DNA of 64,000 nucleotides from Escherichia coli (GCF_003334305.1 NZ_QOWS01000018.1); one strand, 5' to 3'. Numbered from the stretch's first letter, positions 60,641 to 61,337 are shown. Program-made: numbers and translations. The notes: a model not told the origin generated them from the sequence alone.

Positions 60641-61176
60641 AAGCGAAGCGCCCCTCTTAGTATATTTCTTAATCGTCTCTTTAGCATTTAGTGCTTTTTG
60701 TTAAGTTTAGCACTTTTTGCTAAAGACAAAACACTTGACAAAATGGTAAGATTGTTCACATGACCTTACTTAACAGATTCTTAAGAGCTTTGAAACGAAC
60801 TGTTTAACAAGGTCACTACCTCTGGTCTTATCGTTCCCTCTCTTCTTGGTAGTTCTGTTAAGTATCTTTTCAGGTATCTCTTACAGTCACTGTTAAGATA
60901 GAACCTACCTTCGGTTTCATGGTTCTCTTCCTCCCGTTAAATATCCCTTCACAGTCAGACTAAATAACACCTCTGTAGTTTCTTGGTAGAATCTTTCAAG
61001 GTAACTTAACTCTGAGTTTATGAAGTTGACCTTAGTCAATGTTTGTGAAGGTGTTACAGAGCATGTTCTCTAGGTCTGTGTAGCTCACTAAGCGAGAGAG
61101 GGGATATGTGACCATAGGGGAACCCCTCCTGTTAAAAGTTTCTTGATGTTATCATCACAATATGTATAATCACCAA

Positions 61177-61337
61177 CTGTACAGACACCTTAACGGTTTC
61201 TCTACACCTCACTATGGCTAGGTAGGGTATGGTTTAGCTTGGTACGGCTAGGTTAGGTCTGGTTTGGTTAGGTATGGGTGGATTGTCGTAGCCACGTTAA
61301 AAATCGACTTATAGGGACTCTTTCGGGAGTCCTTTTT
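61177..61337 (+). ncRNA. Candidate small RNA (about 160 nt) with tandem G/T-rich repeats
   Basis: Promoter TTGATG-16-TATAAT at 61143-61170; repeats at 61216-61281; terminator GGACTC-TTTCGG-GAGTCC-TTTTT at 61314-61337; no ORF. Confidence 0.35.

Follow-up and report, generated by a model that had tools for sequence, protein, structure and literature searches.

In the 64-kb stretch of Escherichia coli DNA analysed here (the window), a 900-bp gap within a phage-related mobile element is devoid of annotation, and RefSeq lists nothing at the locus. What this gap encodes was the question raised by a preliminary description, which had proposed a small RNA gene with G/U-rich repeats located between a strong promoter and a terminator. 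Both flanking signals were confirmed by a scan combined with direct reading, the promoter as TTGATG-16-TATAAT and the intrinsic terminator immediately behind the repeat-containing region (Table 1). Diverged alleles keep the promoter in the same place, as TTGACG-16-TATAAT or TTGACA-17-TAAGAT in the allele alignment, and promoter and terminator are both retained in alleles from other E. coli genomes with an identity of only 71-89%. The terminator stem covaries among alleles (GAGGACTCC/GGAGTCC and GAGGGCTCC/GGGGTCC). An ORF check found no ORF of note on the plus strand at the locus and none downstream, as had been claimed. Transcription would start near position 61177, and the 5' leader is probably trimmed off the mature RNA; from promoter to terminator the gene measures about 160 nt, of which about 96 nt are predicted to form the mature core. 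Judged from these signals, the proposal of a stand-alone, non-coding, repeat-containing small-RNA gene of this size on a phage-relevant mobile element appears to be right. The gene was found in 153 of 5426 complete E. coli genomes. Upstream of its promoter, about 440 bp of conserved non-coding DNA (60700-61140), mosaic among related elements, contain a conserved TTGACA at 60736, followed by an inverted repeat of 16 bp (60761-60776 / 60800-60815), and directly before the promoter, at 61098-61130, lies a GC hairpin (GAGGGG...CCCCTC).

The repeats had been described as four 15-nt units arranged as two 30-nt repeats. G/U-rich repeats are present at this position, but the true unit is 5 nt and not 15 nt. 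As Tandem Repeats Finder supported the 15-nt reading by only a weak array (score 39, 64% matches), it was dropped in favor of the 5-nt period, with the apparent 15- and 30-nt repeats arising from the pentamer register. Counted in phase with a period of 5, GG occurs at 9 of 10 positions in the tract, compared with at most 5-6 when the window was shuffled. Nowhere else in the 64 kb, on either strand, does the in-phase count reach 6. A logo over 63 related arrays gave G at the first position (85%), G at the second (99%) and T (82%) or C (9%) at the third, while positions 4 and 5 are unconstrained. The resulting dinucleotide (NN) series of the window gene reads (AT) TA AG AT TT TT AC TA TA CT TT TA AT. 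Twelve is the commonest copy number among the 63 arrays, and alleles differ by 5-nt steps so that the register is kept. In alleles with 71-100% identity, promoter, terminator, GGY register and the 3' structure described below stay in place and NN content, repeat number and leader turn over, which is the pattern to be expected of a selected guide.

The preliminary description had overlooked a conserved H-type pseudoknot at the 3' end of the repeat tract. Its first stem, S1, pairs 61278-61281 (GTGG) with 61292-61295 (CCAC), the second, S2, pairs 61285-61288 (GTCG) with 61305-61308 (CGAC), and loop L3 is the A-rich GTTAAAAAT (61296-61304). Among 20 distinct tails 97.8% of the cells are paired, with changes on both sides in eight of the nine pairs; controls with slid partners gave only 28-45% pairing. 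As the wobble variants are G-U on the plus strand and never on the opposite strand, the pseudoknot is one of RNA transcribed from the plus strand.

All 4227 Rfam families were searched against the 64-kb window at gathering score without a match at the locus. The only two Rfam hits in the window, a cspA-type thermoregulator 5' UTR (34338-34760, plus strand, 162.7 bits) and a tRNA gene (15438-15522, minus strand), are ordinary chromosomal features. Among phage records, a DNA search recovered the repeat-plus-tail part alone, with 75-79% identity and in Felixounavirus only (wV8, SUSP1/2, garuso, Sf17). According to pattern scans, the module is confined to the Felixounavirus phages of about 88 kb and to islands in E. 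coli and E. albertii; a scan of genome contigs outside E. coli yielded E. albertii and two hits in Firmicutes MAGs, which are probably due to chance. Each Felixounavirus genome harbors two to five modules within two intergenic regions around a pair of small genes located downstream of DNA ligase. At this phage locus, as at 60500-61700 of the window, Rfam returned nothing meaningful at E-values up to 10. In wV8 the modules occupy both intergenic regions flanking gp096, and a sequence search of PDB with gp096 identified entry 36pp, 'SUSP1 Vipr protein' (E-value 6e-128). The lead came through this PDB match; literature searches on non-coding RNAs, satellites and transcriptomes of Felixounavirus yielded nothing relevant. 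In wV8, an unannotated ORF of 47 codons (L005:2606-2749), located between DNA ligase and the promoter of the first module, would encode a very hydrophobic peptide.

The system to which this protein belongs is covered by two bioRxiv preprints (April-June 2026) and by PDB 36pp, and was defined as VIPR, Viral Interference Programmable Repeat (10.64898/2026.04.26.720920). Vipr is an ancestral RAMP protein which binds vrRNAs of about 100 nt consisting of 9-16 YNNGG repeats and a 3' tail, and small RNAs bound to Vipr have been demonstrated (10.64898/2026.04.26.720920). In the SUSP1 clade the tail is a pseudoknot (10.64898/2026.04.26.720920; 10.64898/2026.04.26.720927). The GGY triplets serve as handles for the protein, and target specificity resides in the variable NN dinucleotides, which read double-stranded DNA on either strand, skipping one base per unit and requiring no PAM; transcription is repressed upon binding (10.64898/2026.04.26.720920). 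Cryo-EM resolved one Vipr protomer per repeat and the terminal pseudoknot (10.64898/2026.04.26.720927); filament formation, gapped pairing and repression were demonstrated for SUSP1 (10.64898/2026.04.26.720920; 10.64898/2026.04.26.720927). Within intragenic targets the skipped base falls on the wobble position of the codon (10.64898/2026.04.26.720920). Of the SUSP1-clade guides, 18 out of 20 target an E. coli satellite phage sharing structural genes with SUSP1, and satellites of SUSP1-like phages carry vrRNAs of their own (10.64898/2026.04.26.720920).

In sequence and structure, the window RNA shows all hallmarks of this family. It has 13 tandem YNNGG units, it ends in the 3' pseudoknot, and the module is 75-79% identical to those flanking vipr in wV8, SUSP1 and garuso and thus to experimentally detected vrRNAs beside vipr, with a tail loop identical in sequence to that of the phage vrRNA located upstream of vipr. 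Under the 1-nt-skip rule it also has a target matching at least 80% of the NN positions (20/24), and its best match to the window itself is 16/24. Genes for vipr (RAMP) and vap were not found in the same locus. Taken together, the RNA is almost certainly a vrRNA of a type II (SUSP1-clade) VIPR system, as far as its sequence can tell. RNAs of this kind, including their occurrence on these satellites, are already described in the preprints and are absent from Rfam and from genome annotation. Since the RNA matches an already described family, an outcome named beforehand as decisive, the claim of novelty falls: a family with this repeat exists in the two 2026 preprints and PDB 36pp, though not in Rfam. 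The more general proposal of a repeat-containing regulatory or protein-sequestering RNA stands with regard to a repeat-containing and, presumably, protein-binding molecule; the RNA is a guide rather than a CsrB-type sponge, and sequestering is left as a minority alternative, which is weighed below.

Compared with the published type II vrRNAs, the window RNA shares the conserved GGY and hypervariable NN of the pentamers (13 here and 9-16 in the family), the pseudoknot tail with the same loop as the vrRNA upstream of vipr, a predicted gapped (xNN) target of at least 80% without self-targeting, and the reported satellite context. In contrast, it is accompanied by neither vipr nor vap, is a lone unit with its own sigma-70 promoter and terminator rather than an array of the vipr operon, and has a satellite-specific variant of tail stem S2 (GTCG/CGAC). 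Similar to Class 1 CRISPR crRNA and Cas7, a RAMP-fold protein polymerises along a variable guide capped by a conserved structured handle, and thumb insertions disrupt the duplex between guide and target at regular intervals. Unlike there, the locus contains neither a repeat-spacer array nor cas genes, vrRNA specificity is divided among dinucleotides in each 5-nt unit rather than residing in a single continuous spacer, one target base in three is skipped and not one in six, and no PAM is reported for vrRNAs. A CRISPR array in the strict sense, with direct repeats of 23-50 nt and unique spacers, was rejected, as the repeat search found the pentamer tract only and the element lacks cas-like proteins. 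The first hint of a periodic protein-binding RNA came from the likeness to the (G/U)AG repeats bound by TRAP in Bacillus trp leaders, where about 11 conserved triplets separated by two to three free bases each contact one subunit of an oligomer. However, the vrRNA triplet is GGY and not GAG or UAG, its spacing is strictly 2 nt, Vipr forms a helical filament instead of a ring, the vrRNA spacers read a target, and E. coli has no TRAP. A TRAP-like ring wrap was dropped, together with a boxA-like antitermination leader and a 2-tier G-quadruplex, after the periodicity had been accounted for by the match to Vipr and by the preprints. CsrB/RsmZ small RNAs likewise carry many repeated G-rich protein-binding motifs between promoter and terminator, but these are sponges with ANGGA in hairpin loops at irregular spacing, whereas the window motifs are GGY in a strict 5-nt register within an unstructured tract of what appears to be a DNA-targeting guide; a sponge of this type was discarded for these reasons and for lack of an Rfam match to CsrB or RsmZ. 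An antitoxin RNA of a type III toxin-antitoxin system (ToxI-like, with repeats of about 34-40 nt and a toxin on the same strand) was discarded because of the 5-nt period and the lack of a downstream plus-strand ORF.

The vrRNA gene is located on an integrative satellite of Felixounavirus phages, the right boundary of which was placed from empty-site genomes. In addition to the genes given in Table 1, the satellite encodes an HNH protein and several ORFs to which PHROGs, NCBIfam and Pfam assigned no function. The tape-measure protein is 32% identical to wV8 gp074, and the 269-aa protein is 72.5% identical to wV8 gp075. Within the latter gene, a 519-bp patch (window 52640-53158, wV8 45506-46024) has 93% nucleotide identity, and outside this patch satellite and phage have diverged much further, which points to recent recombination between satellite and helper. 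The element is a mosaic relative of a satellite in E. coli SCU-387 (L050) and is 70-91% identical to it over most modules; integrase, insertion site and right-end cargo differ. The satellite proteins WP_096972664.1 and WP_096972663.1 (Fig. S14, 10.64898/2026.04.26.720920) are encoded by genes of the SCU-387 element, and by sequence relationship the window element belongs to the satellite family of the preprint. Searching the window and the satellites L003 and L050 for vipr and vap1 by tblastn returned neither (best E-value 0.09), so that the guide is an orphan at the sequence level. The lack of vipr and vap fits the published sub-class of satellite-encoded vrRNAs and thus marks the guide as an orphan without removing the RNA from the family. 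As RAMP proteins diverge beyond sequence recognition, a Vipr-like RAMP may still be hidden among the six unknown ORFs of the satellite, which encode 236, 184, 118, 93, 71 and 71 aa.

Table 1. Positions of the satellite, its genes, the parts of the vrRNA gene and the predicted vrRNA target sites in the window.
Feature	Position	Strand	Remarks
Integrative satellite of Felixounavirus phages, ~11.9 kb	50700-62610 (about 50.70-62.61 kb)		inserted at 5' end of wrbA
Large serine recombinase	50745-52388	+	
Baseplate-hub homologue (269 aa)	52385-53194	-	
Predicted phage-vrRNA target	53216-53245	-	18/20; 22-51 nt upstream of start codon of baseplate-hub homologue
Tape-measure protein	53330-55498	-	
Predicted wV8 vrRNA2 target in tape-measure gene	53975-54007	+	19/22 NN; skipped bases at codon position 3
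Predicted helper-phage vrRNA target in tape-measure gene	54243-54269	-	18/18 NN; skipped bases at codon position 3
Predicted phage-vrRNA target in 184-aa ORF	58494-58532	+	23/26; skipped bases at codon position 3
Predicted target of two phage vrRNAs	58969-59004	-	20/24 and 18/22; 26-61 nt upstream of 184-aa ORF
N6A methyltransferase	59972-60640	-	
Sigma-70 promoter of vrRNA gene	61143-61170	+	scan and direct reading; -35 TTGATG 61143-61148, 16-nt spacer, -10 TATAAT 61165-61170
5' leader	61177-61212	+	two unrelated variants in allele alignment
Guide region, 13 tandem YNNGG units	61213-61277	+	GGY handles alternate with NN dinucleotides
3' tail, H-type pseudoknot	61278-61308	+	
Intrinsic terminator	61313-61337	+	scan; 9-bp stem, UUCG loop, U run; unidirectional
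Small serine recombinase	61542-62093	-	
Predicted target of rival satellite vrRNA (E. coli strain M9, L025)	62341-62376	-	20/24; conserved right-end non-coding block

For target prediction, each GGY of the window guide was decoded into one wildcard according to the published 1-nt-skip rule, giving nTAnAGnATnTTnTTnACnTAnTAnCTnTTnTAnAT. The best match, at 20 of the 24 NN positions, is located in the SCU-387 satellite (L050:13848-13883), with homologues in eight other genomes. The matched site is conserved and non-coding and lies at the right end of satellites of the yecE type. A natural allele from an O111:H- strain, in which one NN unit is changed from AT to GT, matches the same site at 21/24. 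When permuted guides were run against three complete satellites, 20/24 was reached by 2 of 1000 and 21/24 by none of 1000. The target block occurs in 292 of the 5426 complete E. coli genomes, and no site above 20/24 (83% of the NN positions) was detected in this collection when a synthetic 'perfect' site was used as query. A 28-aa ORF overlaps the target site in a phase which does not place the skipped bases at wobble positions. No self-target was found in the 64-kb window (best 16/24), and in the complete wV8 genome the best match of the guide was 17/24; both values are at the level of permuted guides, with a mean maximum of 16.8. The window guide is AT-rich, and a search of viral contigs with its central 16 specified bases retrieved non-specific AT-rich matches only. 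For one further satellite allele (L027), no target of at least 80% was present in the sequences scanned.

The guides of the phages in turn were matched against the window, using 40 phage guides and a threshold of 80% of the NN positions. Seven matches of at least 80% fell into the 12-kb satellite and none into the other 52 kb; permuted phage guides averaged 0.29 matches, and 0 of 100 rounds reached 5. The predicted sites concentrate on the tape-measure gene, the 184-aa ORF and upstream regions (Table 1), of which 58969-59004 is likely to be the promoter or leader of a leftward operon. All three intragenic sites have every skipped base at codon position 3, in agreement with the preprint. A match of the phage guide from L020 to the vrRNA gene itself, at the repeat-tail junction (61266-61295, 17/20), is probably spurious and a by-product of the G/T-rich composition. 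The satellite itself also appears to be within reach of a rival: the guide of the satellite in E. coli M9, for which Table 1 lists a site in the window, matches the homologous site in L003 at 21/24, a value equalled by 1 of 1000 permuted guides. The right-end non-coding block extends over 62266-62582 in the window and over 13848-14289 in L050. Another satellite vrRNA allele (L003:9540-9700; also L023, L024 and L026) has the NN series AG CC GA AA CG AG GC TC GG AA TT GC AT and matches chromosomal REP elements (TAGGCCTGATAAGC.TAGCGCATCAGGC) at 23/26 (L050:17857-17895) and 21/26 (L003:11687-11725). The first nine units of this allele would presumably agree with the canonical consensus of REP. The preprint text consulted makes no mention of guides directed at a host repeat with hundreds of copies.

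These results are best accounted for by an orphan vrRNA guide of a type II (SUSP1-clade) VIPR system that is borne by a phage satellite, which we regard as probable. In this arrangement, the guide would be expressed by the satellite under a sigma-70 promoter of its own, and upon infection by a Felix-O1-like helper the Vipr of the helper would be loaded with the satellite guide. As published for the family, one Vipr protomer would bind each GGY to form a helical filament along the repeats with the NN dinucleotides displayed, and these would pair with double-stranded DNA, skipping every third target base and blocking transcription. The loaded complex would then be directed to the conserved non-coding right-end site of rival satellites of the yecE type, so that a competitor for the same helper is silenced. 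Such a function, directed against rival satellites by means of a borrowed Vipr, is favored with somewhat more reserve. The vrRNAs of the helper, in turn, may target the tape-measure gene of the satellite, its 184-aa ORF and the promoter region of the latter. The outcome would be a three-way conflict, in which the guides of the helper are predicted to act against the satellite, the satellite guide against a rival satellite, and the guide of a rival against this satellite. The satellite would also offer a clean natural case of a guide-only parasite whose effector would have to come from the helper, a point that the preprint only touches on. The analysis shows further that a vrRNA can be recognised from raw sequence, as the published VIPR rules (GGY/NN repeats, pseudoknot tail, 1-nt-skip code and wobble-phase targets) were reproduced on an unannotated genome. 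Because RefSeq annotates nothing and Rfam has no model, vrRNA guides escape notice in roughly 3% of the complete E. coli genomes.

Other roles have been considered for the satellite RNA. The vrRNA might mainly soak up the Vipr of the helper, at 12-13 protomers per transcript, and thereby blunt silencing by the helper, with the NN dinucleotides mattering little. The clear targeting of this satellite by helper guides would provide the motive, and the near-consensus and presumably constitutive promoter, the separate terminator, the tail loop shared with the phage vrRNA next to vipr, the imperfect natural target (20/24) and the L027 allele without a target of at least 80% in the sequences scanned all agree with a decoy. 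However, a pure decoy would have no need for the observed target fit: the NN series fits the rival-satellite site at a level rarely or never attained by permuted guides (2/1000 and 0/1000), the allelic NN change improves the fit to the same site, and the guide of a second satellite matches an adjacent conserved block (1/1000). We consider it quite unlikely that titration is the main role. If it were, the RNA would be an anti-VIPR decoy analogous to repeat-mimic anti-CRISPR RNAs. Decoy and guide roles could coexist; that the orphan vrRNA is chiefly or additionally a constitutive RNA counter-defence, which titrates helper Vipr and spares the tape-measure and early genes, appears unlikely on the whole. 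Satellite vrRNA alleles might also steer helper Vipr to host REP elements, where it would be diluted over hundreds of chromosomal sites, and this is less likely than Vipr titration.

That the guide is instead directed against the helper phage or host chromosome, manipulating helper expression for the benefit of the satellite, is very unlikely, as the best values of 17/24 in wV8, the one helper genome scanned completely, and 16/24 in the window are at the level of permuted guides. In its favor are the parasitism of the satellite on a phage with which it has tail genes in common and the satellite allele reading the host REP consensus at 23/26, by which targets outside satellites do occur in the family. 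The exchange of DNA between satellite and phage, as seen in the 519-bp patch with 93% identity, and the missing partner protein in cis would also be expected of an inert relic, i.e., a phage vrRNA that was captured by recombination and fell out of use. Yet a conserved module in which NN, copy number and leader turn over has the pattern of a selected guide, and the gene is found in 153 of 5426 genomes, making a relic a highly improbable explanation. Finally, the locus might function as DNA, either as a replication origin of the R-loop type or as a mimic of a packaging site copied from the helper, given the G-rich non-template strand behind a strong promoter, the position of the modules in the replication-gene region of the phages and other helper-like cis motifs (TGTTAR iterons) on the satellite. 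This is hardly credible in view of the pseudoknot covariation and the one-strand G-U wobbles, which point to RNA, and of the published small RNAs bound to Vipr (10.64898/2026.04.26.720920). An R-loop origin was rejected, as the GC skew of the phage follows transcription only and reveals no origin there, and a packaging-site mimic was rejected because the 581-bp terminal repeats of the phage are located in another non-coding region, at a distance of about 44 kb from the modules (PMC8303462).

Several further features of the satellites were observed. In Felixounavirus Pr103Blw, the direct terminal repeat of 581 bp (L048:1-581; wV8 14351-14955) contains 21 TGTTA[AG]/[CT]TAACA motifs, or 36 per kb, and its left edge reads TTAACA-N5-TTAACA-N5-TTAACA. 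In the non-coding regions of the window satellite the TGTTA[AG] motif has a density of 6-7 per kb versus 0.8 per kb elsewhere in the window, and it occurs there in the pairs TGTTAA-N5-TGTTAA and TTAACA-N5-TTAACA, with sites at 58965-58981 and 59030-59046 and also in 60698-61135. These TGTTAR motifs may mimic terminase or packaging recognition sites of the helper. In the methyltransferase encoded next to the vrRNA gap, the match to the phage methyltransferase profile is limited to residues 15-162, and the C-terminal extension resembles a helix-turn-helix of the resolvase type (…SVKSIAESLRMPLSTTYKIVQRLG). A second 1-kb gap (58944-59971) lacks an annotated gene in strain A7, which is 100% identical to the window; related satellites have a 62-aa hypothetical protein (WP_000247742.1) annotated in the counterpart of this gap, and a 70-aa ORF with a hydrophobic segment is located inside it on the plus strand (59151-59363). 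In E. coli O111:H- 11128 (L002, 9001-10405), the vrRNA, the right-end block and the small recombinase are found at the edge of a lambdoid prophage beside yciI, with IS1203 nearby, a 50-nt insertion in the terminator and no tape-measure module within 9 kb to the left of the vrRNA. This locus looks like a satellite remnant that has retained the guide gene.
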